Source: a virus (lineage: Duplodnaviria; Caudoviricetes). From it: a stretch of 64,000 nucleotides of DNA. The position numbers and the translations under genes are program-made. Shown one piece after another: positions 13,337 to 57,894 of this stretch (positions within the stretch are counted from its first letter, which is position 1; each line of letters opens with the position of its first letter). The DNA lies in the IMG/VR virus record IMGVR_UViG_3300022602_000025, one strand, 5' to 3'. The notes under the pieces are model-generated. The model searched no databases. It saw only the letters and a program-made list of their open reading frames with translations, and was not told the origin of the DNA.

Positions 13337-13537
13337 ATGTTATATCACTGTTATCGTAGTTACTTGCCATTACAAGAAGGCGATGCTCTATCACTAGCTG
13401 TACAGCGAGCGGGTGGTTGGATGCACATACGCAGTCTAGACTGTGTGGATTATCTAGTGCCCGAGACTCGTTCTTCACTAGTATATTTGTATGACTCTAG
13501 GGCGGAAAGAATACCTAAATTAGACTACATACAGTAA
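13337..13537 (+). CDS. hypothetical protein
   Basis: 66 aa; promoter-like TTGCAC-N18-TATAAT at 13221-13250. Confidence 0.55.
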   Translation: MLYHCYRSYLPLQEGDALSLAVQRAGGWMHIRSLDCVDYLVPETRSSLVYLYDSRAERIPKLDYIQ

Positions 13538-13545
13538 ATATCTGT

Positions 13546-13803
13546 ATGCGTTACTTGGTTGATCATCCTGTACAACCTTACTTTCCACATATAGCACTAG
13601 CTCCGTGGCCCATATCATATCGTGAACAACAAAGCGATTGGATTGAAACTATAGGCGTATTAGAAGAGTGGTTGAAGTCACATGTAGGCAGTCACTATAC
13701 CGCTTGGATCTACGCTACAACTAGTGAGCAGGAATCGTGGCAGGCCTGCATAGCTTTCAGTCAAGCCAAATACAAATCCTTATTCTTATTACGTTGGGCT
13801 TAA
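13546..13803 (+). CDS. hypothetical protein
   Basis: 85 aa, Trp-rich; TAAATA-N5-ATG. Confidence 0.65.
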   Translation: MRYLVDHPVQPYFPHIALAPWPISYREQQSDWIETIGVLEEWLKSHVGSHYTAWIYATTSEQESWQACIAFSQAKYKSLFLLRWA

Positions 13804-14015
13804 CTTTGTTTGTATATCAAATATACTAGAGCTAGTTCTGCTGCGCCTAGTATCAATAAGCTAATCCACATTACGATTCTCACGCGAGTTTCTGAGTTCA
13901 TACTAGTATATAGCTCTTTTGCCTGCTGAGGGCAAAATTTTGCGCTCTGCGCTGCCACTTCGTGGGAAATCTTTGTTGGACTCTCGGCTCTGAGGTTTTA
14001 CCATTAAATAGGCAT

Positions 14016-14192
14016 ATGACTCGTTCAATCAAGTGTTATGCTTATTATCCCGTGCGGTTGACATCGGGGGCTTGTGTATGTGATTGTGTTTATTGGATCG
14101 TGGGACTGGATCAGCATTGGGTCGCTACTCATCATACACAGCTACTATCAGAACGGGAATATGTTCTGCACCTGCTGACTGTTACTGTATAA
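14016..14192 (+). CDS. hypothetical protein (58 aa)
   Basis: start moved to the ATG 5 nt after TAAATA. Confidence 0.5.
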   Translation: MTRSIKCYAYYPVRLTSGACVCDCVYWIVGLDQHWVATHHTQLLSEREYVLHLLTVTV

Positions 14193-14445
14193 GTGGACGG
14201 TCGGGGTCGTCTGAACCAATAGCTGGGCGTGGGGGAGTTGGTGCAGGTGCTACTTCAAAGGCTGCGATACGACTCTTATACGCTTCTATGTTCTTAGTCA
14301 CGCGAGCTAGGGCACGTTCTATGTCTGCGATGCGTCTAGGATTGGGTACAACTTCGCCCTGTTGTTCTTTTAAGTAGCGAGTCAACTTCATCTGCTCAAA
14401 CTCTAGCATCTTGATATGACCACGGATTTTGTTTAAGTTATACAT
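14182..14445 (-). CDS. hypothetical coiled-coil protein
   Basis: 87 aa; TAAATA-N5-ATG. Confidence 0.65.
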   Translation of the reverse strand: MYNLNKIRGHIKMLEFEQMKLTRYLKEQQGEVVPNPRRIADIERALARVTKNIEAYKSRIAAFEVAPAPTPPRPAIGSDDPDRPLIQ

Positions 14446-14534
14446 ATGACTATTTAGGTCGAGTCAGCAGTTAGGTCTGTGGTTCTGGTTCTTAGATAAT
14501 TAAGTGTACAGATATTTTACATTAAAGGAATCCA

Positions 14535-14729
14535 ATGTTAAAACCAACAGCAAACTTCAAGATGCCCAAAGAATACAAACGCTGGGCCGCTACTTACGTA
14601 GATAAAGCTGCTCGCCGCAGTTTCCTAAACGATATGGTACAGGCCGTGCTACAAAGCCAAATCGCTCCACCACGCAAAGAAAAGCGAGCATCTGCACCTA
14701 ACCCTACAGCTACAACTTCAGAAGAGTAA
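14535..14729 (+). CDS. small basic hypothetical protein
   Basis: 64 aa; SD AAGGA. Confidence 0.6.
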   Translation: MLKPTANFKMPKEYKRWAATYVDKAARRSFLNDMVQAVLQSQIAPPRKEKRASAPNPTATTSEE

Positions 14730-15256: not shown

Positions 15257-15654
15257 TCAACTTTCACGGCAACTATAACTTTATTGATTGGAATTGGCTA
15301 ATTGATCAGTTAAAGGATCAGCAGGCTCAAGATAATCAGTATGAGCTAGGGGGTATACTAACCCCCGAGCAACAGCGGGCTTATGCTGACTATTGTGGCA
15401 TCAGTGACTACTCACGCTGTTGGGTTATTAGGATTGACCCAGGGCAGACATACACAGACTCAGGTGCTATGGGTAAGGGTCCTAGGGCTCATACACACAT
15501 GGCTCCTTGTGATCCCGGACACGTATGGTTCGCTGACGGGTTTAACTTTTACAACAAGTTCCAGGGCGATACGTTCAAATGGTCCAAAGCTGATTTGCCC
15601 CTACGTGCGGGCAACTGTGGGCGTATACCCATGTGGATTATGAATGTGGCCTAG
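15253..15654 (+). CDS. degenerate 2OG-Fe(II)/cupin oxygenase paralog
   Basis: IDW N-terminus, WVIRIDPGQ, PGHV, GDTFKW, AGNCG; no HxD...H. Confidence 0.5.
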   Translation: MINFHGNYNFIDWNWLIDQLKDQQAQDNQYELGGILTPEQQRAYADYCGISDYSRCWVIRIDPGQTYTDSGAMGKGPRAHTHMAPCDPGHVWFADGFNFYNKFQGDTFKWSKADLPLRAGNCGRIPMWIMNVA

Positions 15655-16087
15655 ACTGTAGCCACTTATCTAAAAGCCAACTGCTAGAATTAGCTTTTGT
15701 AGTACCCCCAACACCAAACTCAAATCTTAGCCTAGGATCCACTAGGGTCATTTCTGGCACATTGTCTGCACCACGATCGCCCCCGTTGGCAAATATGATC
15801 TGATCGTTAGGGTATAAGGCTAGCACGTTGCGTATGGCTTCTATGGCTGTGTCATCGTTGTCATTGAATAGGATAACTCCATCTACAGCTCTAAGGTTTT
15901 CTAAGATTATCACACGCTCCGGGATGGGCAAGAATGCGGCACCCTTTTTACGAGTTAACCACGCATCTGAATTGACACCTACTATTAGTCTATCACCCAG
16001 GGCCCTAGCAGAGTTTAGTAACGCAATATGGCCCGAATGTATAGGGTCAAAGCCGCCTGTTACTAGAACTGTAGTTGATGTGTGCAT
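15638..16087 (-). CDS. cytidylyltransferase-family nucleotidyltransferase (RfaE/TagD/RibL-like)
   Basis: TGGFDPIHSGH, LIVGVNSD, R..ILENL..VD, FANGGDR. Confidence 0.88.
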   Translation of the reverse strand: MHTSTTVLVTGGFDPIHSGHIALLNSARALGDRLIVGVNSDAWLTRKKGAAFLPIPERVIILENLRAVDGVILFNDNDDTAIEAIRNVLALYPNDQIIFANGGDRGADNVPEMTLVDPRLRFEFGVGGTTKANSSSWLLDKWLQSRPHS

Positions 16088-16144
16088 GTGCGTATTTAAA
16101 GTCAGAACTGGCCCTAGTAAAATTTGTGGCTGATATATACTAAT

Positions 16145-16924: not shown

Positions 16925-16942
16925 GTTAAATGCGTATATAAT
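16914..16942 (+). promoter_or_regulatory. sigma70 promoter TTGACA-N17-TATAAT
   Basis: perfect consensus overlapping the upstream gene end (IDK*). Confidence 0.8.
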
Positions 16943-17084: not shown

Positions 17085-17783
17085 ATGTCTATAATACGCA
17101 AAGCAGTTTGTGCGCTAGTAGTATTATCGGTTCTGGCTTTCCAAAGTGTCAGTCATGCCGAGACCCCGCAAGTGACAGAAGAGGGTCAACCCAATCTAGC
17201 TGGGTATGTAGTAGCAGATGCTAGAGATAGGATTGGATCGTTCGTAACTGCGATTTCAACTCCCGTAGTCAATATGAAAGAGTTACAATGCCTAGCCCGT
17301 AACATATTCTTCGAAGCGGCCAATGAGCCGGAAGAGGGTAAGGTAGCAGTAGGCCTAGTTACACTGAACCGTGTCCAAGATGGACGTTTCGGTCGTTCAG
17401 TATGTAACGTGGTCGACCAAAAGACGATCTTTAATGTTCCCAAACATATTGTCGTGGAAAAGCGTCAGTTTTTCCGTACAGTTGAGGAAACTCAAACTGT
17501 CTACGTCAATCGTGCTGTGTGTCAATTCTCATGGCGCTGTGTGTTTGTCAAGACTCCAAAAGGAGAAGACGAACGTTGGGTAGAAAGTCAACAAATTGCT
17601 CGAGAGTTATTGTCTAGTGACGATACTTACAGTGATTGGCGCAACAAGTATGACGGTGCATTGTACTTTCATGCTACGAATGTCAGACCGCCCTGGGCTC
17701 ATCAAAAGACAGCCATTGGACGTGTCGGAGGACATTGGTTTTATCAAGACAAAGAAGCAACACAACGAGTTGTCTATAGATAA
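17085..17783 (+). CDS. cell wall hydrolase, SleB/Hydrolase_2 family, with signal peptide
   Basis: CLARNIFFEA, AVGLVTLNRV, CQFSW, ALYFHA, VGGHWFY; strong SD AGGAGG. Confidence 0.9.
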   Translation: MSIIRKAVCALVVLSVLAFQSVSHAETPQVTEEGQPNLAGYVVADARDRIGSFVTAISTPVVNMKELQCLARNIFFEAANEPEEGKVAVGLVTLNRVQDGRFGRSVCNVVDQKTIFNVPKHIVVEKRQFFRTVEETQTVYVNRAVCQFSWRCVFVKTPKGEDERWVESQQIARELLSSDDTYSDWRNKYDGALYFHATNVRPPWAHQKTAIGRVGGHWFYQDKEATQRVVYR

Positions 17784-17791
17784 ATATTGTT

Positions 17792-18007
17792 ATGAGAGCC
17801 CATGAATTTATAACAGAAAAAACCAGCGCAGCACTTTGCCATTCAGGTCGCCGTCTAGGACGTAGCGATTATGCTAGTTGTGTGAGCCAAGGGCTCCGAG
17901 CTCACACTTCTAAAGGCAAAGGTCATACAGATGGCAAAGGCCACTACTTAAAAGGCAAGAAGAAAAAGTCTACTAAGTACGGTGGCGATGTTCCAGATTA
18001 CAGCTAA
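17792..18007 (+). CDS. small basic protein with capsid-targeting-like N-terminus
   Basis: MRAHEFITE followed by a K/G/H-rich tail; TAAATA-N5-ATG. Confidence 0.65.
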   Translation: MRAHEFITEKTSAALCHSGRRLGRSDYASCVSQGLRAHTSKGKGHTDGKGHYLKGKKKKSTKYGGDVPDYS

Positions 18008-18034
18008 TCAACAGGTGCGTATTTTAAATACGCT

Positions 18035-19327
18035 ATGTTCGATAAACTACCCTGGCTAACCACAGCCAAACCAATAACATTTCAAACAACAGCAACTAAT
18101 AGAGAACAAAGTCTCTGTGTAGTCCCATGGATACATCTTAACATCGAACCTGATGGTAGAATGACTCCTTGCTGTCTTACCAGTACTAAGGTTAAGAATC
18201 TAGGCAACATCAACGAAACCTCTATAGAAGAAGTGTGGAACAGTGAAGTTCTACGTACAATGCGTACACAAATGTTAAACGGAAAGCGTCCAGAAATTTG
18301 TAGCCGTTGTTGGAAGCAAGAAGAAGTCACCGGAGAAAGCAGCAGGATCCATCGCAATAGAGAATTTGGGCATGTTGTTGAACGTATTCCAGATATGACT
18401 GAGCCTGATGGTACAGTCAAAGACATGAAGTTGTTGTATTGGGACTTCCGCTTTAGCAATATATGTAACCTTAAATGTCGTTCATGTGGCCCGCAATATA
18501 GTAGTGCATGGAAACCAGATGCTGAAGCATTGGGTTGGATCAAACCTAATGAGATAGGTAAAGTTATTCAAGTAGACTCTGTAAGTGATAAAACTAACTT
18601 TGACTTTATAGTGGAACAATCGAAGTATGTTGAACGCATTTACTTTGCTGGAGGTGAGCCGTTGCTCATGGATGAGCATTGGCAAATACTAGACTTACTT
18701 GAACAACAGGATCGATTTGATGTTACAATTACATATAACACTAATTGTAGTAGCCTTACGCACAAAGGTAAGAATGTATTAGACTACTGGCGCAAGTGGA
18801 AGAAAGGACATATTGAAATATGGCCTAGCATTGATGAGATTGGACCACGTGCTGAACTTATTCGTAGTGGGTCCGATTGGAATAAGATTGAGCGTAATCT
18901 TATCGCAATGAGTGAATTAGATAACTTAATCGTTCGCCCTAATATTACAGTTGGTGCATTGAACGCACATCGTATTCCGGAGATTGTCGAGCATCTGACT
19001 AGTATTGGAGTTATTAACTCTAAGCAACACTATCACAATTGGTACATTAATCTTATTTTAGAACCTGATAACTTGCATGTTAGTATTTGGAATGAAACAT
19101 TTAGAATGCAAACTATTGATAAGTTAACAGCATGGGCCGCCGAATACGAAAAGAAGTATCGTACTATGCGTATCTTACCTAAGTTAAATCAAATTATACA
19201 TGAGCTTCGCCAACCTACTAATCAAGGTGCTAAGAATCGCTTTTTGCAACTGACTAAACAAATGGATGTGCTACGCCAAGAAGATACGTATGCTACAATT
19301 CCAGAATTAGTTGAAGCACTTAAATGA
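18035..19327 (+). CDS. radical SAM protein with N-terminal SPASM/twitch-like domain
   Basis: CVVPWIHL...PCC, CSRC, CNLKCRSC, YFAGGEP, YNTN. Confidence 0.92.
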   Translation: MFDKLPWLTTAKPITFQTTATNREQSLCVVPWIHLNIEPDGRMTPCCLTSTKVKNLGNINETSIEEVWNSEVLRTMRTQMLNGKRPEICSRCWKQEEVTGESSRIHRNREFGHVVERIPDMTEPDGTVKDMKLLYWDFRFSNICNLKCRSCGPQYSSAWKPDAEALGWIKPNEIGKVIQVDSVSDKTNFDFIVEQSKYVERIYFAGGEPLLMDEHWQILDLLEQQDRFDVTITYNTNCSSLTHKGKNVLDYWRKWKKGHIEIWPSIDEIGPRAELIRSGSDWNKIERNLIAMSELDNLIVRPNITVGALNAHRIPEIVEHLTSIGVINSKQHYHNWYINLILEPDNLHVSIWNETFRMQTIDKLTAWAAEYEKKYRTMRILPKLNQIIHELRQPTNQGAKNRFLQLTKQMDVLRQEDTYATIPELVEALK

Positions 19328-29235: not shown

Positions 29236-29911
29236 ATGTTGGAACTACTTGTCCTGGCTTGTATGTTTTATAATCTAATCCTTCAAACTCACCTTCACAA
29301 CTGCGAGTTATATCAAACAACTCCATGATATCTAATCTCTTATATTGTGCAACTATCCATGACTTATCAATAAAACGGAAAGGATGACTAGCAACAATAT
29401 CCATGTGTATCATGTACTCTAGATGTTCAGTGTCGGCATTACGTTCAACATTACGTTCCGTCATACCTCCTAGGTCTATATCTCTAGGATTGTGTGTTAC
29501 AGCATTGTAATAGGCTTTGACATTGTACTTGTGACAAAGCCATTCTGCGTATGCTCTTTGTTGTATATTATCTCCGCTGACAAATTTATTGTATTCATCA
29601 GGAATACTAGGACCTATGTTACCGTACTCTATATCTGGTGCAATGAAATTAACATGCCGTATCATTTTTATTTTTGGAAATCTTACAGACAACCAATTAA
29701 AAACTCTCTTGCTATCTTCCTGTTGCCACGGGCGAGTCTTCCACATCCTAGTATGGCTAATAACGTGTACTAACATATCGTTTGGTATTAGGCTACACAA
29801 TAGGTAGGCTAGCAAGGCACTATCAGCACCTCCACTTAAACTTATAGCAATACTATTCCAGTCTTTATTAAATGGAATACGCACACCGTCTATATCATGA
29901 AACATCTGCAT
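29180..29911 (-). CDS. QueC-like / PP-loop adenine-nucleotide alpha-hydrolase
   Basis: SLSGGADS, HPF, TRSCE...TCGECFWCKER. Confidence 0.75.
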   Translation of the reverse strand: MQMFHDIDGVRIPFNKDWNSIAISLSGGADSALLAYLLCSLIPNDMLVHVISHTRMWKTRPWQQEDSKRVFNWLSVRFPKIKMIRHVNFIAPDIEYGNIGPSIPDEYNKFVSGDNIQQRAYAEWLCHKYNVKAYYNAVTHNPRDIDLGGMTERNVERNADTEHLEYMIHMDIVASHPFRFIDKSWIVAQYKRLDIMELFDITRSCEGEFEGLDYKTYKPGQVVPTCGECFWCKEREWAIEQNK

Positions 29912-30758
29912 TTTCTAAATACCTTATTAACGGACTTACTCCTACAGGCTGTCCATCACGTAGTGCTAGATAGATACTGTTAGTTGGCATGAGATTAAAG
30001 TCATAACAAACTTTATAGTAACTACGGCTGTGCGTTGTCCATAGGTAATCTACAGGAAACTTTCTAATAAAGTGTAACCCAATCATTGCAGGTGCCCGTA
30101 GATTCATACGAAAGTCGTTCATGATAGTAATTGAATCAGCTTCAGTATCTCTAGTCCAGCGCAGCCCTATACGATTCCAGCCAAGCCCAAGACCTTTGGA
30201 AAGACTAATTCCAAACGAACGTATAGCTGGGTGATTGAAATCAAACTCAATATCACGGCAACAGCTAATCCAAGCCCCATCAATGTGTACAGCAATCTGT
30301 TTATCCAAACACTCATCTAATATATCCTTCATTTGTATATGCGGCGCTCCTGTGCTTGGGAACGGCATAGCAATTATTAATGGTAATCCTTTACGCAAGT
30401 ATCCTGGGATACTATAAACTAAATTTGGATTTAGCCTGCTGTGATATCTATAATCACCTTTTAGTGTTTGTACAGGACCTTTCATATACAAACTATCAAT
30501 AAACTGTGTACACCCGTTGATAATGTCTACACGATTGAATTGATCAAATCCAGATATAGTATTAATTTTACTATCTTTTAACCAATCTGTCATTTCTTTT
30601 TTAAAATTGGTGTAGACTGTGTCTGTAATATCACGATCCATTTTACCAGAAAGTACATCTTGTATTGTTGACTCGATAAGATTGTCAGAAAGTGGTTGAG
30701 GTCTTTCAACTTCTAGATATTCTGCAGAGTATGATGGAGCGATCTTATAGCGTGTCAT
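29895..30758 (-). CDS. PLP-dependent enzyme, fold type I (aminotransferase/decarboxylase-like)
   Basis: HIDGAW, SLSKG (Schiff-base Lys), RIGLR; start moved to 30758. Confidence 0.75.
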   Translation of the reverse strand: MTRYKIAPSYSAEYLEVERPQPLSDNLIESTIQDVLSGKMDRDITDTVYTNFKKEMTDWLKDSKINTISGFDQFNRVDIINGCTQFIDSLYMKGPVQTLKGDYRYHSRLNPNLVYSIPGYLRKGLPLIIAMPFPSTGAPHIQMKDILDECLDKQIAVHIDGAWISCCRDIEFDFNHPAIRSFGISLSKGLGLGWNRIGLRWTRDTEADSITIMNDFRMNLRAPAMIGLHFIRKFPVDYLWTTHSRSYYKVCYDFNLMPTNSIYLALRDGQPVGVSPLIRYLENADVS

Positions 30759-30802
30759 GCGAATATTTATGGTCATTATAGTAGCATATAAATATTCGCA
30801 TG
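30756..30802. repeat. perfect 15-bp inverted repeat forming divergent late promoter/ATG units
   Basis: CATGCGAATATTTAT-N17-ATAAATATTCGCATG. Confidence 0.92.
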
Positions 30803-33939: not shown

Positions 33940-34509
33940 GTTCTCAAGGAACTTGTCTGGATAGATGCGCCAGACAGTTTGATCTGTGTTACGATAATTC
34001 ATTTCGCATACTCTTTCTGCGATACCTAACTTGGCCAGTGTAGGAAAATAATGTCTGTGTACTAGACGTTGACTGGCAACTGTGCTTTCGTTGCTGGTAG
34101 CATACAATTCTCCTTTGGCCCACTCAATACACGTTGGTAACAAGAATTGATCTGTTAAGTTCTGATGTTCAGCAATTAGTTTCTTAGTAGTAATAAGTCC
34201 GCCGTTAGGTCTTGCATCTCCAAACGTACATGTACGTGCAAGCACACGATAAGCATTAGGACCCATCTCTGGAAATGAATGTGCCGCGACAGATCCTACA
34301 GCACGATCATCTTGATACAAAATCCAAACAGCCCACTCACGTTCATTCTTAAAACAATCTATCATTGCCTTTTGACTAGAGTTATTAGCAAAGCCTCTAC
34401 GTTCTGCTTCTGCATAAAACTCCGTTAAGCGTAACGGCTGTGTCCACTGTATGACTTTATACATAGATCTCTTTGGCACGCTCGATAAACTCTTTAGGAT
34501 AGTCTGCAC
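33913..34509 (-). CDS. GNAT-like acyltransferase fold protein
   Basis: AVWILYQDDRAVGSVAAH...YRVLART...LYATSN pattern. Confidence 0.5.
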   Translation of the reverse strand: MQTILKSLSSVPKRSMYKVIQWTQPLRLTEFYAEAERRGFANNSSQKAMIDCFKNEREWAVWILYQDDRAVGSVAAHSFPEMGPNAYRVLARTCTFGDARPNGGLITTKKLIAEHQNLTDQFLLPTCIEWAKGELYATSNESTVASQRLVHRHYFPTLAKLGIAERVCEMNYRNTDQTVWRIYPDKFLENLERYPRWI

Positions 34510-35149
34510 TAAAACTATTAAAGGCCAGCATCTGTATATCTTTAATAGGTGCAGGCTTATCCCAATCTATGCCCATAGCATCAGAATGTTTCTTAAGTTC
34601 TATCCTGCGGCCTTCGCTAATATGACTAAGGAAACTGTTTACTGTAATAGGTGCTTCTTTATCATCATAGGTAAAGAAGTAGTTGATGCTCTTTAACTTT
34701 CCGTCTACAATAAAATAACTGTTAGGATGTAGACTAATCTTATACCATCCCAAGTCTTTGTGTGCTTGTAAGATAGCCAGCATCTGTTCTTGCCAATCTG
34801 GTAATACCGCATCAAAGTCGCAAGCTCTGTTCAAGCTACGTTGCCATAGATCAGGTCCATCTATTTCTAAATAGATCTTACGTTCTGGAACATTTACTTC
34901 GCGGATCTTAGGAACCATATCTGGATTGTGCCATGCCATGTTAGATAAGAAGTGCATCTCACGTTGCCATTTATCTTTCATTAGTGCAGGATCTACTTGG
35001 TTCATACCTTTGTGATATTCGCTATCATTATTAAACCATTGACAAAATACTGTTTTGTCTTTGTTTACCAAACTGGTATAAACTAAGTTGTTTCTCCAGG
35101 GCTCGCCCCCAGGTATTTGATTGTAGTAGTATTCAAAGTTGTCTTGCAT
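34457..35149 (-). CDS. protein-kinase-like fold protein (atypical)
   Basis: WQREM, VPKIREVN, KIYLEIDG, SLHPNSYFIVDGKLKSINY; paralog of 24589. Confidence 0.55.
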   Translation of the reverse strand: MQDNFEYYYNQIPGGEPWRNNLVYTSLVNKDKTVFCQWFNNDSEYHKGMNQVDPALMKDKWQREMHFLSNMAWHNPDMVPKIREVNVPERKIYLEIDGPDLWQRSLNRACDFDAVLPDWQEQMLAILQAHKDLGWYKISLHPNSYFIVDGKLKSINYFFTYDDKEAPITVNSFLSHISEGRRIELKKHSDAMGIDWDKPAPIKDIQMLAFNSFSADYPKEFIERAKEIYV

Positions 35150-35176
35150 ACCCTTAATTATAGCATAAGTACGTGC

Positions 35177-35992
35177 ATGATACGCGGAATTGGCGGAAAG
35201 CCCTACATCAGTTTAGACGAACATCTTGATATACAAGGATTTGTAGATCTGCATCCAGAAATATGCAGAGGCTTTGCGTTGGCCAGAGATTATGCTAAAG
35301 AAGGCACATGGATGAAACCTGGCTTTGATTGGAAAGACGCTAGCTATACAGTCAATTGGAAACCTATCTATAAAGCTGTTGAAGAATATCTGGCATTACC
35401 TACTGAACATCCTATTCGTAAGAATGGTGATGACTTATACTTTACTGACCTAAGTGATTTTAAGAATCGCAATACATTTACCAGATATCTAAAAAGCGTA
35501 CTAGGTGCAAGCGATCCTTACATATACTATTTCTTATGGGAACAGGGCGATTGGAATCAGCGTAATGCTGTCCGTGAACCTACTGAAGAAAGCAAATACT
35601 TTCCAGGTGTTGTCCGTTGGGTAAACAGCCTAGTAGAACAAAACATTATTAGCCAAATTGGACGTGTGATATTCTTTCATTGCGATCATAACGGACTAGC
35701 ATTTGAGCATAGAGATTTAGATGCAGACAATGGTGTGTTAGATAAAGATTCATATACTGATCATCGTAACGAGTTTATACACATCCGTTATAGAACCAAG
35801 CGTGGATTCTACATTTGGGATCCTGATACACAAAACAAATACTATATCAATTCACATGCAGGCTTTTGGAATGACGAAGACTGGCACGGTGGAGATACTA
35901 GTAACGAACAAGAGTATGCACTACGAATAGATTGCGTGTTCACTGATGAGTTCCGCAAGAAACTAGGCATAGATCATTTAGATACTTACTAA
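35177..35992 (+). CDS. 2OG-Fe(II) oxygenase-like cupin
   Basis: GRVIFF...FEHRD...WHGG...ALRID; start moved to 35177. Confidence 0.65.
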   Translation: MIRGIGGKPYISLDEHLDIQGFVDLHPEICRGFALARDYAKEGTWMKPGFDWKDASYTVNWKPIYKAVEEYLALPTEHPIRKNGDDLYFTDLSDFKNRNTFTRYLKSVLGASDPYIYYFLWEQGDWNQRNAVREPTEESKYFPGVVRWVNSLVEQNIISQIGRVIFFHCDHNGLAFEHRDLDADNGVLDKDSYTDHRNEFIHIRYRTKRGFYIWDPDTQNKYYINSHAGFWNDEDWHGGDTSNEQEYALRIDCVFTDEFRKKLGIDHLDTY

Positions 35993-38857: not shown

Positions 38858-38886
38858 TATAGTAGTACTTATCTATAAATATCGGC

Positions 38887-40050
38887 ATGAGAGAAACTTA
38901 TTGTGCCTTAGGTTGGACAGGCTTAAACATTACTCCAAGAAGTGCGTCTGTTTGTTGCTGGTCAAGCGAACGCATTCCCTATAGCCAAGTCAATCAGTCT
39001 AACGCAATAGAGTCGCCGATACTGTTTGTTACTCGAGATAAGATGTTAAAGAACGAGCTAGTGGCCGGATGCTCACAATGTTATCACAACGAAGACATAG
39101 GCATATGGTCTAGGCGACAGCACGCTAACGAAAGAATTGGTAGAGTTGAGGAAGTTAAGTTACGTACATTAGATATTAGTTTTGATAATATTTGTAATTT
39201 AAAATGTCGCGGATGTATTAGTGCTGCTAGTCATTTGTGGAGAGACGATGAGGAAGCAATATATGGTCGGACGTTCTTTGATAAGAAATATGACAAATCA
39301 AACTTATGGGAATCTATAGATTACAGCGGACTTGATAAAATTATTGTATCTGGTGGAGAACCATTCCTTAGCCCTAATGCAGAAGCATTCTTTGCCAAAC
39401 TAGATAATATTGAAAACATTGATTTAACTGTATCAACTAACGGAACGGTTTTGCCTGGCCCTGCATTTTACAATGCCCTGTTAAATTGTAAATCGCTTGA
39501 CTTATCTATAAGTTTAGAAGGGTACGGGTCAGTAACAGAATACTTTAGAAGTCTTTCAAACTTCGATACAGTGATCGCTAATCTAAGAGAATTAGAAAAA
39601 CTTATTGATCTACGTAAGACAAAGACATTGATACAAATTACAACAGTGGTCAGCATATACAACGCTACTAAGTTATCAGACTTAGGAGATTTCCTTAAAA
39701 AAGAATTTCCAAGAGTTGCATGGTTGACTAAAGTATTGAGTTGGCCTCCACAGTTATCCTTAAGCAACATGCCCGAGGATCTAAAAGATATAATGCGTCC
39801 TGTAATAGAAAGTTATGGACCTAGCCAACAGCACATACTTAATCATTTAAACATGCCCGGAGATAATCTGTTTGAGCATTTTTTAAACTTTCATAATAAG
39901 TTAGATGAGCTACGTAATGAAAACTTAAGAAACTGTAATGAATTATTAGCAGACTATGTTGATGCGTATCAAACACAAAATCCTGTTAGGGTTGACAGCA
40001 AAGAATTTCTTAATACACAAATGTTAAACTTATTGAGCAATCTTGGCTAG
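38887..40050 (+). CDS. radical SAM protein with N-terminal SPASM/twitch-like domain
   Basis: YCALGW...VCC, CSQC, CNLKCRGC, SGGEP, STNG. Confidence 0.9.
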   Translation: MRETYCALGWTGLNITPRSASVCCWSSERIPYSQVNQSNAIESPILFVTRDKMLKNELVAGCSQCYHNEDIGIWSRRQHANERIGRVEEVKLRTLDISFDNICNLKCRGCISAASHLWRDDEEAIYGRTFFDKKYDKSNLWESIDYSGLDKIIVSGGEPFLSPNAEAFFAKLDNIENIDLTVSTNGTVLPGPAFYNALLNCKSLDLSISLEGYGSVTEYFRSLSNFDTVIANLRELEKLIDLRKTKTLIQITTVVSIYNATKLSDLGDFLKKEFPRVAWLTKVLSWPPQLSLSNMPEDLKDIMRPVIESYGPSQQHILNHLNMPGDNLFEHFLNFHNKLDELRNENLRNCNELLADYVDAYQTQNPVRVDSKEFLNTQMLNLLSNLG

Positions 40051-40788: not shown

Positions 40789-40825
40789 AGTTATCCGTGC
40801 ATTAAATACAGGATAGGAGACATGG

Positions 40826-41464
40826 ATGCCCAGCTATTTTGGTAATACCGAAGATTTAATTGATTGGAAGTCAGTACTTGAATCAATTAAAGATAAGAAA
40901 GGGATATACGACATATATAACCCTGAGCTAGAGTATGACGATTCGAAACCTGCAGAAGAAACAGCCGCAGAAAAACTAGAAGTAGACATGCAAAGAATGC
41001 TCGAAGAAAACAAGGACAAGGATTACTTTGGGGATATCGTTAAGACTGCTCGCAAAGTACTAGGTGCATGGTGGGACGTTGGTTATAAGAAATCTGAAGT
41101 ATACTGGGAAGATTTTTACGCAGGTGAGCATTTTGATATCGCTGTGCAAGATGCGTTTATTAAACTAACAGGAGAAACTCCTATACGTGTATTCATAACA
41201 CGATTACTTCCTGGTAAAGTTGCACCAATGCACTTTGATGTATTTCCTGATCTAACTCCGTATCAAGCCTTAGGTGAAGTGTCTAGATATACTTGCTTTG
41301 TACAAGAACCGCAATGGGGACATGTTCTTGCATTTAAAGATGCTTGCTATCAAAATCAGCCCGTTGGTAAAATTTACAAATGGAACCATGTTCACGAATG
41401 GCATGCGGCTGCAAACATGGGCCTAACTCCATATTACATATTTCATTTCATAGGTTATAAATGA
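40826..41464 (+). CDS. 2OG-Fe(II) oxygenase (AspH-like cupin)
   Basis: LLPGKVAPMHFD...WHAAAN; paralog of 25275. Confidence 0.8.
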   Translation: MPSYFGNTEDLIDWKSVLESIKDKKGIYDIYNPELEYDDSKPAEETAAEKLEVDMQRMLEENKDKDYFGDIVKTARKVLGAWWDVGYKKSEVYWEDFYAGEHFDIAVQDAFIKLTGETPIRVFITRLLPGKVAPMHFDVFPDLTPYQALGEVSRYTCFVQEPQWGHVLAFKDACYQNQPVGKIYKWNHVHEWHAAANMGLTPYYIFHFIGYK

Positions 41465-45109: not shown

Positions 45110-45588
45110 TAGAATACGTTACCCGCATTGAGGACTTTTGGACAAGTGATTTACAATCGTTTGTATTTCCGCATCTAAGTCCTACCGGGCAACGTGATAG
45201 CTTTCATACAAATTACAGTAAAGCAAATAATGATTTACCGCAAGCATTTGATAGCGAAATACCTAACTACGAAAAGTTTCCTACAGCACTTGGATTAGAT
45301 AATGTTGCTGTTAGCTGGACCTGTATAGAACCCGGACAGGCTATTCCTATACATCAAGATGCTTTTTATAAACTAAGACAGAAACATTCTGTAGATATAG
45401 AACAATGTGTTAGGTATCTAGTATTCCTACAAGATTGGGAACTCGGCCACTTTGTTGAGTTTGAAAATTTTGAATTAACCAAATGGCATAAGGGTGATGT
45501 TTACAAGTTTGATTATCAAGCTACCCATTGTGCAGCTAATGCTAGTAACTCTAGATTTGTTACTTGCCAAGTAAACAGTCTTAAATAG
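45106..45588 (+). CDS. 2OG-Fe(II) oxygenase (AspH-like cupin)
   Basis: IEPGQAIPIHQD...THCAAN. Confidence 0.78.
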   Translation: MIEYVTRIEDFWTSDLQSFVFPHLSPTGQRDSFHTNYSKANNDLPQAFDSEIPNYEKFPTALGLDNVAVSWTCIEPGQAIPIHQDAFYKLRQKHSVDIEQCVRYLVFLQDWELGHFVEFENFELTKWHKGDVYKFDYQATHCAANASNSRFVTCQVNSLK

Positions 45589-45606
45589 ACTTATATAGAG
45601 GACGAT

Positions 45607-46728
45607 ATGCTTACATCACTACAAACACACTGGGACAATAAAACACTCGACTACGACTTAAAAAAATATAACTGGCCTGCATGGGCATTAAGCGTTATCC
45701 AAGAAGTCGCTCCGCAAATTAAAGAGCTAGAAACAATGCACTTGTATCTAACTCCTGCTGAAATCGTTAAAGTTGGCAATCACGTACAAAATGCGTGTAG
45801 TCGCAGAGACTTTATGGAACGCTTTGATGAGTTCGCTATGAGTGTAGTTCCTCAGCGTATTGATGGTAAGCGTTTTATGATACAGCGTCAAGGTACTCTG
45901 CGTGTTGTTATTCCTAATCAAGCAAAAGTAGGTCGCAGACTTGCTTTCCATCAAGGTATCTTTGTGGGCAACGGACGCGGCTGTAGAACTATTTGGACTC
46001 CGTTTACCAAAGCAGAAAAGACTAACACCATGTGGATGTTAGACTTAGACATTAGTCGTGTGATTACTAAGCGTGTTCTTGCTGAAAAATGGACTATGGA
46101 ACAGTTTGAGGACGAGTGTTTAAAACATGCTTGGCCAGTAACCTTACAACCTGGACAAAGTCATCTGTTCTTCCAAGAACATATTCACGGCAACGTAAAC
46201 AATGATGAAGGGTATACTCGTGTTAGTATGGATATGCGTATTCTTATTGAAGGCGAGGAATGGGGACGTAGACTTCCTGGCGGCTTTATGCGATTACCGG
46301 GCGACTATGAAGTAACACAAACTGGTGACTATACTGGTAAGAGCTTTATTACCTATGCAGGATGGAACAGTACATTTAGTAAAAACATTCCTTTGCCGAT
46401 GCAACGTGCTATTATTGAGCCGTATTGTGTTAAAAACAAGATTAGTTACAACAGCTACGAATTTGAAAATGAACACATGGATTGGCAACCAGGACTAGAA
46501 TATTATATTAAAGAACGTCCAGATGGCATCGTGCTATCTAGCATGTATGCACTTACTGACGATGTTGTTCGTAGAAGTGAATTGCTACAACTAGCATTAG
46601 ACAACGGCGTAGAATTGCATTTTGCTAACGAATTATGTGCGTTGAAAACTGTAGATGATCTAGAAAAGATTGAAACTTACTTGAATTTCGCTGTTCCGAA
46701 AAAGGGTCCGTACGTCTGGGAGGAGTAA
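45607..46728 (+). CDS. StrG/PhyH-like cupin oxygenase with extra C-terminal domain
   Basis: AFHQG, TIWTPFT, HIHGNVNN...TRVSMDMR; HxG in place of HxD. Confidence 0.6.
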   Translation: MLTSLQTHWDNKTLDYDLKKYNWPAWALSVIQEVAPQIKELETMHLYLTPAEIVKVGNHVQNACSRRDFMERFDEFAMSVVPQRIDGKRFMIQRQGTLRVVIPNQAKVGRRLAFHQGIFVGNGRGCRTIWTPFTKAEKTNTMWMLDLDISRVITKRVLAEKWTMEQFEDECLKHAWPVTLQPGQSHLFFQEHIHGNVNNDEGYTRVSMDMRILIEGEEWGRRLPGGFMRLPGDYEVTQTGDYTGKSFITYAGWNSTFSKNIPLPMQRAIIEPYCVKNKISYNSYEFENEHMDWQPGLEYYIKERPDGIVLSSMYALTDDVVRRSELLQLALDNGVELHFANELCALKTVDDLEKIETYLNFAVPKKGPYVWEE

Positions 46729-46743
46729 ACTAAATAGTAAGTT

Positions 46744-47505
46744 ATGAAACAATTCTTACTAGACAAATTTAATTCTCTTACTAAAGATACTTTAATAGCG
46801 TTTACAAATGCTGTTACTAAAAGTATGCCTGTGTTCAAGAGCGGGTTTACAGGGCTACCGATATGGGGATATACAGATACCGGGTTTTGGACAGTACACC
46901 CTATAAATACCTGCCCTGAGCTACGTTTTTACGGAAATGACGGCTCAGTACATTTACTAGGTATGAGACACGATCAAACATATTTTGATTTATATCAGCG
47001 TATCTATAATGATTTTCAAAATACCGGTTATCGTTGCTTAACTCCTGTGTCGATTGAAGAAGTTAGCATTGTTCCTCATACAGATCTTTATTTTAATCTA
47101 GATAATCAAAGTCAGGTTAGAACACTTTATTACACTCAGTTTACTTCACCAACAGGCGGAATAATAACTCCTGCTTTGTTCTTTGGAGAAGGGTTTGAAA
47201 ACACAACTACTTTGCCTGTATTAACAGAACTAGTAGATCAGTCTTGCAAACTTTTATCTACATTCAAAGAAGTAAGTATACCATTTCCTAGACTAAGTTT
47301 AAGTTACGAGTACATGGGAATTGATAATCAAGGACTGTTCCATACTATATTTCCTACACCGGCCGCAACAGCTGAACAAGGACTTGCTGTTCAGCAAGAA
47401 GCAATGGATGTTGTTACAAACTACGCATTAACAAACATGTCTAGTGATGAACAACAAACACTACAAACATTAATGAGCGAAAAATGGCAACCGTTAACGA
47501 TTTAA
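46744..47505 (+). CDS. hypothetical protein
   Basis: 253 aa ORF after a TAAATA element. Confidence 0.65.
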   Translation: MKQFLLDKFNSLTKDTLIAFTNAVTKSMPVFKSGFTGLPIWGYTDTGFWTVHPINTCPELRFYGNDGSVHLLGMRHDQTYFDLYQRIYNDFQNTGYRCLTPVSIEEVSIVPHTDLYFNLDNQSQVRTLYYTQFTSPTGGIITPALFFGEGFENTTTLPVLTELVDQSCKLLSTFKEVSIPFPRLSLSYEYMGIDNQGLFHTIFPTPAATAEQGLAVQQEAMDVVTNYALTNMSSDEQQTLQTLMSEKWQPLTI

Positions 47506-51883: not shown

Positions 51884-53026
51884 TTAAGTTGATGCGACTG
51901 TCCATGTAGTAGTTGTGATGCTTGACGGAACTATTCCTCCGAACGCACCAGCCGCTACGTTTTGATAAATGGCAAAACCAATACCGCCACTAACTGAATC
52001 TGGACCTAGTGTTGGGCTTCCTGTTGCTGTGTGATAGTCAATGTATCTAACATTAATTGAAACTGTTGTAGTATTCAATGCAGGTAATCCCCAAACTTCT
52101 ACTTTGTTTTTTGAGTACGCACTAGTAGCTAGCGGATCTGATAATTGTAGCAATAAAGTTGATGATGTTGCTGTAAACAAGATATCATATTGTGGTGCAT
52201 TTAGAACATAGGTAAAGCTGTTCATGAATGTTAGCCAGTTTTGATCTTGTGCAGATCCAGAAGCTGTTGGGAAAATACCTTGGAACGATACGTTACCGCC
52301 CTGATTAAAGAAGTAGGTAGTTGCGTTTGTTGAACTAAACGAAATATTAGTTGTACTTTGTGTACCACTGTTCGAGCTTCCGTTAGGACCACCCCATGAA
52401 CCGCTGTTTGTGCTAGAACCAATTAATGTTTGTACTAATTGACTAGCAGCTACAGTTGTACGATTTGCGATAGCTGTAGTCATGTAACTGTCAATCGTAG
52501 CCAAGTTTGCGTAGGTAATTTTACCTACTAGCTGTGCGTAACCTGTGTATGTATTACCAGTTTGATGGATCCAAACTTTGTTAGTATCATTAGCTAAATT
52601 TTGCCAATGTGCGTGTGTAATCGTAGCAGATGAAGCAACAGAAGTAGAGCTAGTGATCTGATTATAACCAAAGTCTGGATAGTATGTGATAAGTCCGACA
52701 GCATATTGATTAACTGTTGTTGCACCTGATTGAGTAGTTTCAAACGCACCTCTATAATATGTGTTTTTGCTTACAGAATCATAATAGGTCGTAGTAGTGC
52801 CGATGCCTGCGAAAAATACAGTTCCGTATGGATTGTATGTAATAGTGGTTTGTAAAGTGTTTTGATCTTCTGCCCAATTATATTGTGGAGGCAACAGGCT
52901 GTACTGAGTAGGAGTATACACTACGTATTTTGGCCCGTAAGGATAGCCATCTCCTAATACTTGATTAACCTTAGTTTGTACGGTGTTATAGTCTGCACCG
53001 TAGATAATTGTTCCTGTACTAGCCAT
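51884..53026 (-). CDS. putative virion structural / tail-associated protein
   Basis: Thr/Ser/Gly-rich 380 aa; ADYNTVQTKVNQVLG, YFFNQGG; TAAATA and SD upstream. Confidence 0.65.
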   Translation of the reverse strand: MASTGTIIYGADYNTVQTKVNQVLGDGYPYGPKYVVYTPTQYSLLPPQYNWAEDQNTLQTTITYNPYGTVFFAGIGTTTTYYDSVSKNTYYRGAFETTQSGATTVNQYAVGLITYYPDFGYNQITSSTSVASSATITHAHWQNLANDTNKVWIHQTGNTYTGYAQLVGKITYANLATIDSYMTTAIANRTTVAASQLVQTLIGSSTNSGSWGGPNGSSNSGTQSTTNISFSSTNATTYFFNQGGNVSFQGIFPTASGSAQDQNWLTFMNSFTYVLNAPQYDILFTATSSTLLLQLSDPLATSAYSKNKVEVWGLPALNTTTVSINVRYIDYHTATGSPTLGPDSVSGGIGFAIYQNVAAGAFGGIVPSSITTTTWTVAST

Positions 53027-53153
53027 TCGTGATCTCCATTAACCTATATTTATTACGTTTTTAAAAAGGCTGATTGCTCTTTATTTTGTTCTGTGCTACT
53101 ATTTACACTATAAATAGCTCGTAGAATGCTTTTTTGATGTATTGAGAATTTAT

Positions 53154-53546
53154 ATGGCATATTCGGACAAAGTAATAGATCACTATGAAAATCCACGTAA
53201 TGTGGGCAGTTTGGACAAAAACAGTCCAGATGTAGGTACGGGTATGGTTGGTGCTCCTGCCTGCGGTGATGTAATGAAACTTCAGATTGAAGTACATGAC
53301 GGAGTGATTACTGATGCAAAGTTTAAAACATACGGATGCGGAAGTGCAATCGCCAGTAGCAGTCTCGTTACAGAATGGGTTAAGGGCCGCTCGCTTGATG
53401 ATGCTCAAAAAATTAAGAACAGTGACATCGCGGAAGAACTTGCTTTGCCTCCGGTTAAGATCCACTGTTCAATCTTAGCTGAAGATGCTATCAGAGAAGC
53501 CATAAAAAACTATAGAGAAAAACATGGAACCAATAACAATAACTGA
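53154..53546 (+). CDS. iscU: Fe-S cluster scaffold protein IscU
   Basis: [54 protein letters not shown]; TATAAATA at 53109. Confidence 0.97.
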
Positions 53547-53853
53547 GTCAGCTACTGCCAAAATAGTTGATATACTAGCAGAAGAAAACAATCCTGCTGT
53601 TTCCCTGCGTGTGTTTGTGCAAGGTGGCGGTTGTTCAGGTTTTAGTTATGGCTTTACCTTAGATGAAGAACAGGCAGATGATGATTTTGAAATAAGCAAG
53701 CCTGGATTTAAACTTTTGGTAGATTCTATGAGCTATCAATATCTTGTAGGCGCTACAATAGACTATAAAGAAGAACTAATGGGCAGTAGCTTTACTATCC
53801 AAAATCCAAACGCCCAAACTACATGCGGTTGCGGTTCATCGTTTTCAGTATAA
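53524..53853 (+). CDS. erpA: A-type Fe-S carrier ErpA/IscA
   Basis: [37 protein letters not shown]. Confidence 0.93.
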
Positions 53854-55447: not shown

Positions 55448-55448
55448 A

Positions 55449-55691: not shown

Positions 55692-55694
55692 AAA

Positions 55695-55913
55695 ATGGCA
55701 AAAGATGATCTACTTGAATTTGACGGCGAGGTAGAAGAGGTTCTACCCAATGCGATGTTCCGTGTTCGAGTTAACGAAAACTATTCACCACTATGTGTGA
55801 TATCAGGCAGAATGCGCCAAAACAGGATTCAAATCCTGCTTGGCGACAAAGTAAAATTAGAAGTTAGTACTTACGATTTGACCAGAGGTCGAGTCACTTA
55901 TAGATATAAATGA
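55695..55913 (+). CDS. infA: translation initiation factor IF-1
   Basis: MAKDDLLEFDGEVEEVLPNAMFRV...ISGRMRQNRIQILLGDKV...YDLTRGRVTYR. Confidence 0.95.
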   Translation: MAKDDLLEFDGEVEEVLPNAMFRVRVNENYSPLCVISGRMRQNRIQILLGDKVKLEVSTYDLTRGRVTYRYK

Positions 55914-56423
55914 TTACAAGTACATAGCCCAGCTAGGGTGGCGTAGGTCAAACTTCATTCTCTTACGCTTTTCAACTAATTCCCAATATGTAGGCTTATA
56001 AGGCATACGCTTAGGCTTAATCTTTTTGTTGTTGCCCTTGGCACTATTACATTTAGAGCAAGCGCAAGAGCTGTTTTCCCAAGTTGACTTACCACCATGG
56101 CTTACAGGGTGTACGTGGTCAAGTGTAGCTGTGCGGCGATTTACTTCGCAACCACAGTACTGACATTTAAAATCATCTCGCAAGAACACATTCATCTTAC
56201 TGTAACGAATATACCCTTTCTTTTTGGTAAATTCTTTCAACATGATAATAGCAGGAACACGAGTTTCCCATTTTGCGGAACGCACAATCCAATCATCGTG
56301 CCACTCTAACACGGAAACCTTGTCAAGGACCATGTAACGAATAGCTTCTTGCCAATCGATAACACTCAATGGCAAATATGAAACTGGACTTGCGTCTGAA
56401 TTTAAAAGTAGAACGTCTGACAT
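55914..56423 (-). CDS. HNH endonuclease
   Basis: FLRDDFKCQYCG, TLDHVHP...GG...W.N...ACSKCNSAKG; start moved to 56423. Confidence 0.9.
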   Translation of the reverse strand: MSDVLLLNSDASPVSYLPLSVIDWQEAIRYMVLDKVSVLEWHDDWIVRSAKWETRVPAIIMLKEFTKKKGYIRYSKMNVFLRDDFKCQYCGCEVNRRTATLDHVHPVSHGGKSTWENSSCACSKCNSAKGNNKKIKPKRMPYKPTYWELVEKRKRMKFDLRHPSWAMYL

Positions 56424-56480
56424 AATCACATATTTATAAGTGCGTGGATAACAGTGATAATTATAACACAAGGACGCTAA

Positions 56481-57302
56481 ATGAACAAGGTTTTAATTAC
56501 AGGACACCGCGGTTGGATTGGTAGCAATTTTACCAAATTATTAGACAGTCTTGGAATGTTTTGGGTCGGAATTGATCGTTTAGACGGCGAGGATCTGCTC
56601 AAAGATATAACTCCGTTTCAAGAGAAATTAGCGGATTGTGATATTGTAGTACACTTAGCCGCCACTCCTAGAATACCCGCAAGCTGGGCAAATGCAGATC
56701 ACTACAGAGATAATAACATAGGTGTTACAGATCAAATCGCTCGTATTTGTGCAGAACAACATAAACACTTAATTTTTGCTAGCTCTAGTTCAGTATATGG
56801 CAACGGTGACGGCCCCCTAAATCCCTACAGTTGGACAAAGTATGCTGGCGAGCAAAGCATACAGATGTACAGTCGTAGCCGTAATCTAGAATACACTATC
56901 CTGCGTATCTTTACAAACTACGGAGAAGATGATCCTAGCGGACTGGTTATCAGTCGTTGGCTAGATCAGTACAAAAAAGGCGAACCGTTATTGTTAAGAG
57001 GCACGGGAAATCAAAGCAGAGATTTTATCCATGTTAAAGATACTTGCCGTGCTATACTAGCCTGTTGTTTAGAAAAGCCCTTGAATCGAGTATTAGATAT
57101 TGGCACAGGAGTAAATGTAAAACTAATAGATATTGTCAAAGCATTTAATTGCGAATATACGACAGAACCTGAGCTACCTGGATATGCATCGTCAACAAGA
57201 GCTAACGCATACAATACTCGAAAATTTATTAACTGGACACCAGAATATCAACTGCTAGATTGGATCAAAGAGAATCTAGCCCTTGATCAAGGTCGACAGT
57301 AG
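56481..57302 (+). CDS. NAD-dependent epimerase/dehydratase
   Basis: ITGHRGWIG, HLAA, ASSSSVYG, YSWTK, RDFIHVKD. Confidence 0.92.
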   Translation: MNKVLITGHRGWIGSNFTKLLDSLGMFWVGIDRLDGEDLLKDITPFQEKLADCDIVVHLAATPRIPASWANADHYRDNNIGVTDQIARICAEQHKHLIFASSSSVYGNGDGPLNPYSWTKYAGEQSIQMYSRSRNLEYTILRIFTNYGEDDPSGLVISRWLDQYKKGEPLLLRGTGNQSRDFIHVKDTCRAILACCLEKPLNRVLDIGTGVNVKLIDIVKAFNCEYTTEPELPGYASSTRANAYNTRKFINWTPEYQLLDWIKENLALDQGRQ

Positions 57303-57552
57303 TATTCCAGAATCTTCTACTCTCAATTCCTTTAGTTTGTGCGAACCGTTTGCTAGGACAACTAGGGCATACATGTACATGCTCGTTAGTTAGTCGTCTT
57401 GGATCCATCTGACTGACTCTCCTTTCAAATTCCCTACCGCAACAATCACACTTCAGTAATGCTACATTGTGGCTTCTAACATAGGAATGTAGCTTTCCGT
57501 TTTTGCTAGGCCGTGAATGCTCTTGTGTTATTTGAAATATTTGTAATAGCAT
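57265..57552 (-). CDS. Zn-ribbon hypothetical protein
   Basis: CDCC...CPSC. Confidence 0.6.
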   Translation of the reverse strand: MLLQIFQITQEHSRPSKNGKLHSYVRSHNVALLKCDCCGREFERRVSQMDPRRLTNEHVHVCPSCPSKRFAQTKGIESRRFWNTTVDLDQGLDSL

Positions 57553-57597
57553 CGGGTATTTACATTCGGAGTATAAAACGGCAAACTAAATAGCAGT

Positions 57598-57894
57598 ATG
57601 AACCCGACTAAACGATCTCTACAGGAAGTTGCATCAAGTGCATCTGCGCTGAAACAGGCCAGATCCGAACCTATCCAACAAGAAAATCTTAATAAACCGT
57701 CTGGATTTTTAAAAAGTTTAATCGCACCTGTTCAACAAGGAATGAATATTGAACAGATGTTAGAAGCACAACTAGAAGCAGAAGCTCGCAAGTTAGAGCC
57801 TAAAGACCCTATTATTGAAATAGAGGAACCTATAACGGTTAACGCTCAACAAGACACTTTAACTGACATCAAAAGATTAGCAGGAATTAGATAA
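57598..57894 (+). CDS. hypothetical protein
   Basis: 98 aa; TAAATA-N5-ATG; ends DIKRLAGIR. Confidence 0.6.
   Translation: MNPTKRSLQEVASSASALKQARSEPIQQENLNKPSGFLKSLIAPVQQGMNIEQMLEAQLEAEARKLEPKDPIIEIEEPITVNAQQDTLTDIKRLAGIR

Follow-up and report, generated by a model that had tools for sequence, protein, structure and literature searches.

Bacteriophage T4 is the textbook model of phage late expression, and its late mRNAs carry ordinary leaders. The T4 late promoter box, TATAAATA, lies at positions -13 to -6 (PMC1524935) and is read by the sigma factor gp55 with gp33 and the gp45 clamp (PMC1524935, PMC2988020), with an AT-rich segment directly after the box (PMC2988020). An ATAAATA late motif has been published for the phages CBB and GAP32 (PMC5259590). 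In this work, we analysed a stretch of 64,000 nucleotides (nt), hereafter the window, from an uncultured freshwater T4-like giant phage (IMG/VR record IMGVR_UViG_3300022602_000025), in which the box TAAATA repeatedly stands a few nt before an ATG start codon, and we compared it with related contigs. The layout points to late promoters that are fused to start codons and that would give leaderless mRNAs.

Leaderless phage transcripts have been described elsewhere. In the Thermus phage phiYS40, later transcripts mostly begin at the initiator codon, and host IF2 is reported to go up and IF3 to go down (review PMC3594737); leaderless middle and late transcripts were also found in the Thermus phage Lalka27a (bioRxiv 10.64898/2026.04.20.719267). 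In Deinococcus-Thermus, a -10 box adjoining the open reading frame (ORF) is the host norm (PMC12340547). The two phages are alike in their leaderless later transcripts, and the IF2/IF3 shift of phiYS40 is conceptually similar to the translation initiation factor IF1 carried by the window phage. They differ from it in that they infect Deinococcus-Thermus, in that their promoters (e.g. TAGGGT) and factors are unrelated to gp55, and in that 5' ends were mapped there whereas they are predicted here. Our literature search found no paper linking T4-type late promoters with leaderless mRNAs.

Predicted late promoter boxes abut start codons in the window

The window has a G+C content of 41% and holds an island of radical SAM/SPASM genes spanning 18-51 kb and an ATP-dependent DNA ligase gene. 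TAAATA is about 3-fold scarce in it, with 29 copies on both strands against some 85 expected from base composition. An ATG follows after exactly five nt (N5) in nine of these 29 boxes, after four (N4) in two and after seven (N7) in two, while four others stand 17-21 nt before an ATG with a Shine-Dalgarno (SD) sequence between (Table 1). With ATG occurring at a frequency of 0.018 per position, 29 boxes would give the N5 arrangement 0.53 times by chance, against the nine observed (binomial P=1.7e-9), and dinucleotide shuffles of the window contained it 1.59 times on average.

A preliminary description of this DNA had listed the nine N5 sites, and all of them were found again, the minus-strand coordinates being a few bases off for the same sites. 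The four N4 or N7 sites were likewise recovered at 18025(+), 57562(-), 46731(+) and 56436(-), as were TAAGTA-N5-ATG at 35166(+) and TAATTA-N5-ATG at 35160-35147 on the minus strand, and the SD-led genes behind the boxes at 53052(-) and 61825(+) are as it described them. The histogram of box-to-ATG distances that it had proposed as a check showed the N5 enrichment over the shuffled control given above and a peak at N4-5 in the whole clade. One-mismatch boxes at N4-7 precede a few first-ATG starts (16145, 35149, 35177 and 13337), which are plausible and statistically inseparable from background.

All fused ATGs of the window open ORFs, of 58-475 codons. Among 61 sites from the window and two relatives' genomes, the fused ATG is the first in-frame ATG of its ORF in 57, and a pyrimidine stands at -1 in 50, which is the usual -1/+1 preference. 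The 4-5 nt spacers contain no SD and leave no space for one. The predicted anti-SD pairing at fused starts is about 0 kcal/mol (-1.7 to +1.6), compared to -6 to -10 for the left-arm early genes, in line with the earlier statement that these genes lack an SD. The early promoters of the left arm, about 17 in number, are of the TTGACA-N17-TATAAT type, and all have a long conserved leader and a strong AAGGAG SD. Most fused sites of the window head divergent units with no co-directional gene upstream. Longest-ORF calls had extended two window genes upstream, past the fused ATG, to GTG or TTG codons. We also considered that the pattern could be a stop-codon artefact, in which the TAA is a stop 8 nt before the next ATG, and rejected it, as this fits only two of the nine N5 sites.

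The fused layout recurs in related phages

A close cultured relative was not found, and a megablast of 12 kb against cultured phages gave no match. Nor did an exact 43-mer from the window occur in viral_contigs or metagenome_contigs; a JGI contig whose ligase is identical spans 50 kb. IMG/VR provided 119 related contigs through the radical SAM gene at 30800 (60-86% identity), at least 598 through the ligase and at least 103 through IF1. Two large relatives were analysed whole, G001 (354,680 bp, CheckV 100% complete) and G002 (269,730 bp), and both carry the T4 core genes gp23, gp20, gp18, gp17, gp21, gp4, gp43, gp41, gp46, gp47, uvsX and uvsW. We scanned 2.2 Mb of related loci and a further 1.2 Mb fetched through IF1, 3.4 Mb in total; each sequence context was counted once and the ATG had to open at least 50 codons.

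In the 2.2 Mb set, 1347 TAAATA boxes showed an ATG at 4 nt in 7.6% of cases, at 5 nt in 10.1%, at 6 nt in 2.5%, at 7 nt in 2.3% and at 8 nt in 1.8%, over a background of about 0.1-0.8% at other distances. Nine control hexamers were flat in this set, except for frame-shifted sub-motifs of the TAAATA box. The further 1.2 Mb, from which only unseen contexts were taken, gave 39 N4 and 88 N5 sites, that is 127 of 666 boxes. Over the 3.4 Mb, about 18-19% of the distinct boxes lie 4-5 nt before an ORF-start ATG, compared to about 0.5% for control hexamers. G001 contains 30 N4-5 sites and G002 20, and the peak is still seen in relatives at 54-60% ligase identity.

The distance distribution is bimodal, with a second and broader peak at 17-30 nt formed by boxes with SD leaders. 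The fused design makes up about half of the gene-proximal late promoters, and the remainder have these 17-30 nt leaders with an SD. TAAATA is depleted 2-3 fold genome-wide in the relatives (observed/expected 0.33-0.45). Orthologues of the gene at 30800 carry TAAATA-N4/5-ATG where they head a divergent unit and no box where they are operon-internal. As judged from these sequence comparisons, the fused layout is a clade-wide trait.

The start codon at 4-5 nt from the box is ATG in 246 cases, GTG in 4 and TTG in 2, with GTG and TTG at noise level. A comparison with SD-led starts (AGGAG-N5-9) was too noisy to use, non-start codons being as frequent as GTG and TTG.

The box has the characteristics of a T4-type late promoter

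We then examined the flanks of the box. Gene-proximal boxes have an A directly upstream in 42-48% of cases, other copies in 18%. At the two positions that follow, fused and leadered boxes alike show T in 49-61% and G in 4-10%, compared to 37-40% T and 11-13% G in the other copies. In the 8 nt preceding the box, no base is conserved; TAAATA itself is invariant by construction. The T-rich, G-poor stretch after TAAATA agrees with the AT-rich segment of the T4 late box (PMC2988020).

The search for a gp55-like sigma factor that the preliminary description had suggested was run on the relatives, and such an ORF was present in all four large related contigs tested. The G002 protein matches phrog_12791, annotated "sigma factor for late transcription" (4e-80), and phrog_234, the T4 gp55 family (7e-24). 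Its nearest cultured homologues are in PA5oct (49% identity) and in the Rak2-, PBECO4- and CBB-like jumbo phages (40%). Searches for gp33 and gp45 homologues in the relatives gave no match above threshold; both proteins diverge fast. They are likewise undetected in CBB (PMC5259590).

Boxes in the relatives stand before gp17, gp18 and a gp25-like gene and behind the terminators of gp23 and gp18, and among 19 replication-type genes tested, a box at most 70 nt upstream is found only at nrdA, at 50 nt. The shared flanks, the genome-wide depletion, the presence before virion genes and the near-absence at replication genes lead us to read TAAATA as a late promoter, and on this sequence evidence it is the predicted late promoter core of the window phage. 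These gene classes also bear on an earlier claim, that island genes are leaderless while structural genes are SD-led, which did not hold: in the relatives gp17, the gp25-like gene and genes after gp23 and gp18 are fused, and two island operons of the window, at 40826 and 45607, have leaders with an SD.

TAAATA at 4-5 nt might instead be a translation signal and not a promoter, with protein S1 or a ribosome modified by the phage recognising it as an AU-rich replacement for the SD. Its spacing is similar to that of an SD to its start codon, and the phage encodes IF1 and one relative bS21. However, the same box with the same flanks also stands 17-30 nt upstream of genes with a normal SD in between, its genome-wide depletion is promoter-like, and its sequence agrees with the T4 late box in gp55-carrying phages. 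Moreover, an unrelated element, TATAAT with a consensus -35, peaks one base further out, as described below. We regard a translation signal as very improbable.

Predicted transcription start on the A of the start codon

TAAATA corresponds to the last six bases of the T4-type TATAAATA box, that is to -11 to -6. The T4 box being at -13 to -6, an N5 spacing places +1 on the A of the ATG. At an N5 or N4 box, RNA polymerase would start on this A and produce an mRNA with neither 5' leader nor SD, which could be translated only by the leaderless route, by a 70S ribosome with fMet-tRNA on a 5'-terminal AUG. N6-N8 boxes would leave leaders of 1-3 nt, functionally equivalent. As a likely consequence, SD-less ATGs would be read well only on transcripts starting there, tying translation to the firing of the late promoter, and the downstream overlapping SD-poor genes of the island would follow by coupled re-initiation.

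Several features are consistent with this start point. RNA polymerase cannot initiate upstream of its own -10-like element, so that the leader would be at most about 5 nt if the box is the gene's promoter. The start codons of the divergent window pairs are only 27-45 nt apart (Table 1), which makes other promoters hard to place. The count of 246 ATG against 6 GTG or TTG fits the known dependence of leaderless initiation on a 5'-terminal AUG (cited in PMC5312081 and PMC9031893). In the relatives, we found nine distinct sites at which an intrinsic terminator (GC-rich hairpin and T-run) ends 3-7 nt before the box, including the large terminase gene gp17 in G001 and G002 and genes after gp23 and gp18. 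At these junctions, upstream transcription would end and the essential gene would restart 5 nt before its ATG.

The late boxes could be real promoters whose ATG-start transcripts are minor or poorly translated. Most of the protein would then be made on longer read-through transcripts, through coupling or through internal initiation that needs no SD. In agreement with this, the TAA of the box doubles as the upstream stop codon at 13535 and 17781, and most internal genes of the 18-51 kb island overlap their neighbours and have a weak SD or none, so coupling is clearly used. Against this, the majority of window sites open divergent units that lack a co-directional upstream gene, terminators stand directly before the box at essential genes of the relatives such as the terminase, and the sharp optimum at N5 (N6 for sigma70) has no rationale if the start point is irrelevant. 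Read-through as the main source of protein appears unlikely to us.

Fused promoters of the sigma70 type were also detected. TTGACA-N17-TATAAT promoters in the relatives have the ATG at N6 in 69 sites, against 13 at N5 and 22 at N7; exact-N6 cases were seen in loci L089, L093, L101, L119 and L152 and in G001 and G002. In sigma70 promoters, +1 lies at this N6 distance from the -10 hexamer. With peaks at N5 for TAAATA and N6 for TATAAT, each promoter type puts the ATG at its own expected start point, and two promoter types each at its own distance are unlike a fixed-distance translation signal. The N6-fused promoters of the relatives predict leaderless early mRNAs, for example for the IF1 gene of G002 (start 2980) and for a gp47-like gene (start 153647). 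Since host-type sigma70 promoters are fused to ATGs as well, leaderless mRNAs would not be purely a late-gene class.

These sigma70 fusions, the IF1 and gp47-like genes included, raise the question of whether the layout simply mirrors a host with routine leaderless initiation for early and late genes alike. This explanation agrees with leaderless mRNAs and would change only what they mean. Leaderless initiation is routine in Deinococcus-Thermus, actinobacteria and Caulobacter. The pattern excess in a cultured phage of SAR11 (HTVC008M, 14 against 4 in the control; see below) goes in the same direction. In the window, however, the only fused promoter of the sigma70 type is TATAAT-N7 at 35149, the same site as TAATTA-N5. 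In addition, the long leaders and AAGGAG sequences of its approximately 17 early promoters, all SD-led, imply that the host reads SD-led mRNAs well. We consider a mirrored host habit possible and somewhat doubtful.

Our preferred interpretation is that the late promoters are fused to ATGs and give leaderless mRNAs, where the 5' ends, the factor that reads the box in the window genome and the mode of translation are inferred. We hold it to be probable, with several points weighing against it. The position of +1 is derived from T4 geometry alone, and the gp55-like gene was found only in relatives. Of the sequencing runs listed as containing this DNA, none is an RNA run. As gp33 and gp45 homologues were undetected in the relatives, the activation mechanism and the exact start distance may differ from those of T4. 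The sites at 13535 and 17781 overlap an upstream co-directional stop codon, and coupling from longer transcripts could serve their genes. Finally, efficient leaderless translation in the host is an assumption. The earlier proposal that transcription starts at or next to the AUG held in every sequence test that we ran and keeps the status of a prediction, and the earlier interpretation as a whole is partly supported.

Comparison with T4 and other cultured phages

The window clade shares with T4 the core of the box, the AT-rich segment after it, the lack of conserved bases in the preceding 8 nt, the location before structural genes and, in the relatives, a gp55-like sigma factor. It differs from T4 in that the leading TA of the 8-mer is not conserved and gp33 and gp45 are undetected in the relatives. 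The position of the box is also different: in T4 it stands 23-29 nt before starts with SD leaders and none of 32 TATAAATA boxes is at N4-5, whereas about half of the gene-proximal boxes of the window clade abut an ATG.

The closest cultured carriers of the long gp55-like sigma factor are the Rak2-, CBB- and GAP32-like jumbo phages and PA5oct (PMC5259590, PMC7318152), at 40-49% identity. They have the same late box and are likewise without detectable gp33 or gp45. In PA5oct and PBECO4, the distance distribution is flat at N4-5, with no peak there, and PBECO4 exhibits a peak at 25-36 nt. Counted over N2-10, the pattern was not above the reversed control in PA5oct, PBECO4, XaC1, Phosso and T4, and N4-5 was at background in the cyanophages S-PM2 and Syn9. 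The cultured T4-like Pelagibacter myophage HTVC008M showed 14 TAAATA-N5-ATG matches against 4 in the reversed control, by pattern counts alone; our literature search found no paper on its promoters or 5' ends. Locally, Escherichia phage PBECO4 (NC_027364) contains a layout similar to a fused promoter at 157.8-167.7 kb, where seven tandem paralogous units each have a TAAATA-N7-ATG junction of the form TAAATAT(A/G)(G/T/A)TATAATG.

IF1 and translation initiation

The window encodes an IF1 protein (PF01176, 70.5 bits against a cut-off of 30.2, 9e-20; Table 1). IF1 is kept in at least 103 related contigs and in three of the four large ones, and in many relatives its gene is next to the ligase gene. 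T4, PA5oct, PBECO4 and XaC1 lack IF1, and Sinorhizobium phage Phosso has it. IF1 as a strict marker of the fused layout was rejected, since Phosso has IF1 and no pattern excess. An IF3 domain was searched for in the relatives and not found.

According to a review, leaderless translation in vitro is stimulated by both IF1 and IF2; IF1 is also a strong stimulator of 70S scanning, and additional initiator tRNA strongly favours leaderless mRNAs (PMC9031893). The window IF1 is a candidate for assisting leaderless or 70S-type initiation. The IF1 gene of G002 is itself joined to a consensus sigma70 promoter, and about 0.8 kb upstream of it lies a tRNA(CAT) gene (2144-2217) whose acceptor stem has a C1-A72 mismatch at its top. 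Such a mismatch is an initiator hallmark; this tRNA is without the three G-C pairs of the canonical initiator anticodon stem. A bS21 gene was identified in G001 at 347482-347634 (PF01165, 43 bits) and was not found in three partial contigs.

It is conceivable, if rather unlikely, that the phage re-tunes initiation. Its own IF1, made before the late phase and in some relatives perhaps seconded by bS21 and the initiator-like tRNA(CAT), would push ribosomes towards 70S-type initiation and re-initiation, so that late fused-promoter mRNAs and the SD-less overlapping genes of the radical SAM island would outcompete SD-led host messages. The ATG at +1 would also act as a translational lock that keeps these genes silent on early read-through RNA.

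The window also has a tRNA gene of its own at 11707-11785(-), called tRNA-Met(CAT) by ARAGORN; we take its anticodon arm to resemble that of tRNA-Ile2, the lysidine type.

Features of individual sites

The coordinates of the sites are collected in Table 1.

Table 1. Predicted late promoter boxes of the window, the genes behind them and the IF1 gene. Positions count from the first base of the window.
Feature	Position	Strand	Gene and context
TAAATA-N5-ATG	13535..13548	+	85-aa (amino acid) ORF 13546-13803; box TAA is the stop of upstream ORF 13337-13537
TAAATA-N5-ATG	14005..14018	+	58-aa ORF 14016-14192
TAAATA-N5-ATG	14443..14456	-	87-aa ORF 14182-14445
TAAATA-N5-ATG	16085..16098	-	149-aa cytidylyltransferase-like gene 15638-16087, divergent from a kinase-like gene starting at 16145 behind TATATA-N5
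TAAATA-N5-ATG	17781..17794	+	71-aa ORF 17792-18007; box TAA is the stop of endolysin-like gene 17085-17783
TAAATA-N4-ATG	18025..18037	+	First radical SAM/SPASM gene of the island, 18035-19327
Divergent pair, TAAATA-N5-ATG on both strands	30756..30802	both	Genes 29895-30758(-) and 30800-32227(+, radical SAM); starts 41 nt apart
Divergent pair, one-mismatch boxes	35147..35179	both	TAATTA-N5-ATG(-), gene 34457-35149; TAAGTA-N5-ATG(+), gene 35177-35992; starts 27 nt apart
TATAAATA box, N5 before ATG	38876..38889	+	Radical SAM gene 38887-40050; divergent gene 37634-38857 starts 29 nt away
TAAATA-N7-ATG	46731..46746	+	253-aa ORF 46744-47505
TAAATA-N7-ATG	56421..56436	-	169-aa HNH endonuclease 55914-56423; same start in the public gene call of an identical contig
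Divergent pair	57550..57600	both	TAAATA-N4-ATG(-), 95-aa ORF 57265-57552; TAAATA-N5-ATG(+), 98-aa ORF 57598-57894; starts 45 nt apart
Leadered TAAATA inside the island	40803..40828	+	17-nt leader, AGGAG SD, gene 40826-41464
Leadered TAAATA	45582..45609	+	19-nt leader, GAGGA SD, gene 45607-46728
Leadered TAAATA	53024..53052	-	20-nt leader, GGAG SD, gene 51884-53026
Leadered TAAATA	61825..61854	+	21-nt leader, AGGA SD, ORF starting at 61852
Translation initiation factor IF1, 72 aa	55695..55913	+	Strong SD; downstream of the DNA ligase gene

Two of these sites contain repeats. The N4 box that precedes the island's first radical SAM gene is central in a palindrome with 8-bp arms, GCGTATTT T AAATACGC (window 18009-18037). 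In the divergent pair at 30756-30802, the outermost 15 nt on the two sides are perfect inverted copies of each other, with the spacer TTCGC included. This spacer has no obvious promoter role, and the arms of relatives also share spacers (TTTC or TATCA). The shared arms and spacers suggest concerted evolution or a second function, as an operator or as a hairpin on read-through RNA.

We found also that the HNH endonuclease gene lies between IF1 and a nucleotide-sugar epimerase-like gene and is possibly a mobile insertion. The 380-aa protein encoded by the leadered gene at 51884-53026(-) had no relatives among phage records or viral_contigs. Beside the radical SAM island, the ORFs at 53142-53853(+) correspond to NifU_N and Fe-S_biosyn according to an identical public contig, that is to Fe-S cluster assembly genes. 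A 1309-aa Laminin_G_3 protein is encoded after the 98-aa ORF of the last divergent pair.

Implications

In a large branch of T4-like giant phages that is abundant in the environment, about half of the late transcription units, the terminase gene included, seem to begin directly on the AUG. If this is true, gene callers that expect an SD would mis-start fused genes, and the timing of expression would be readable from sequence alone. Phage translation factors such as IF1 would then need a new interpretation. The layout yields a clean prediction that can be tested in the cultured relative HTVC008M or in lake metatranscriptomes.

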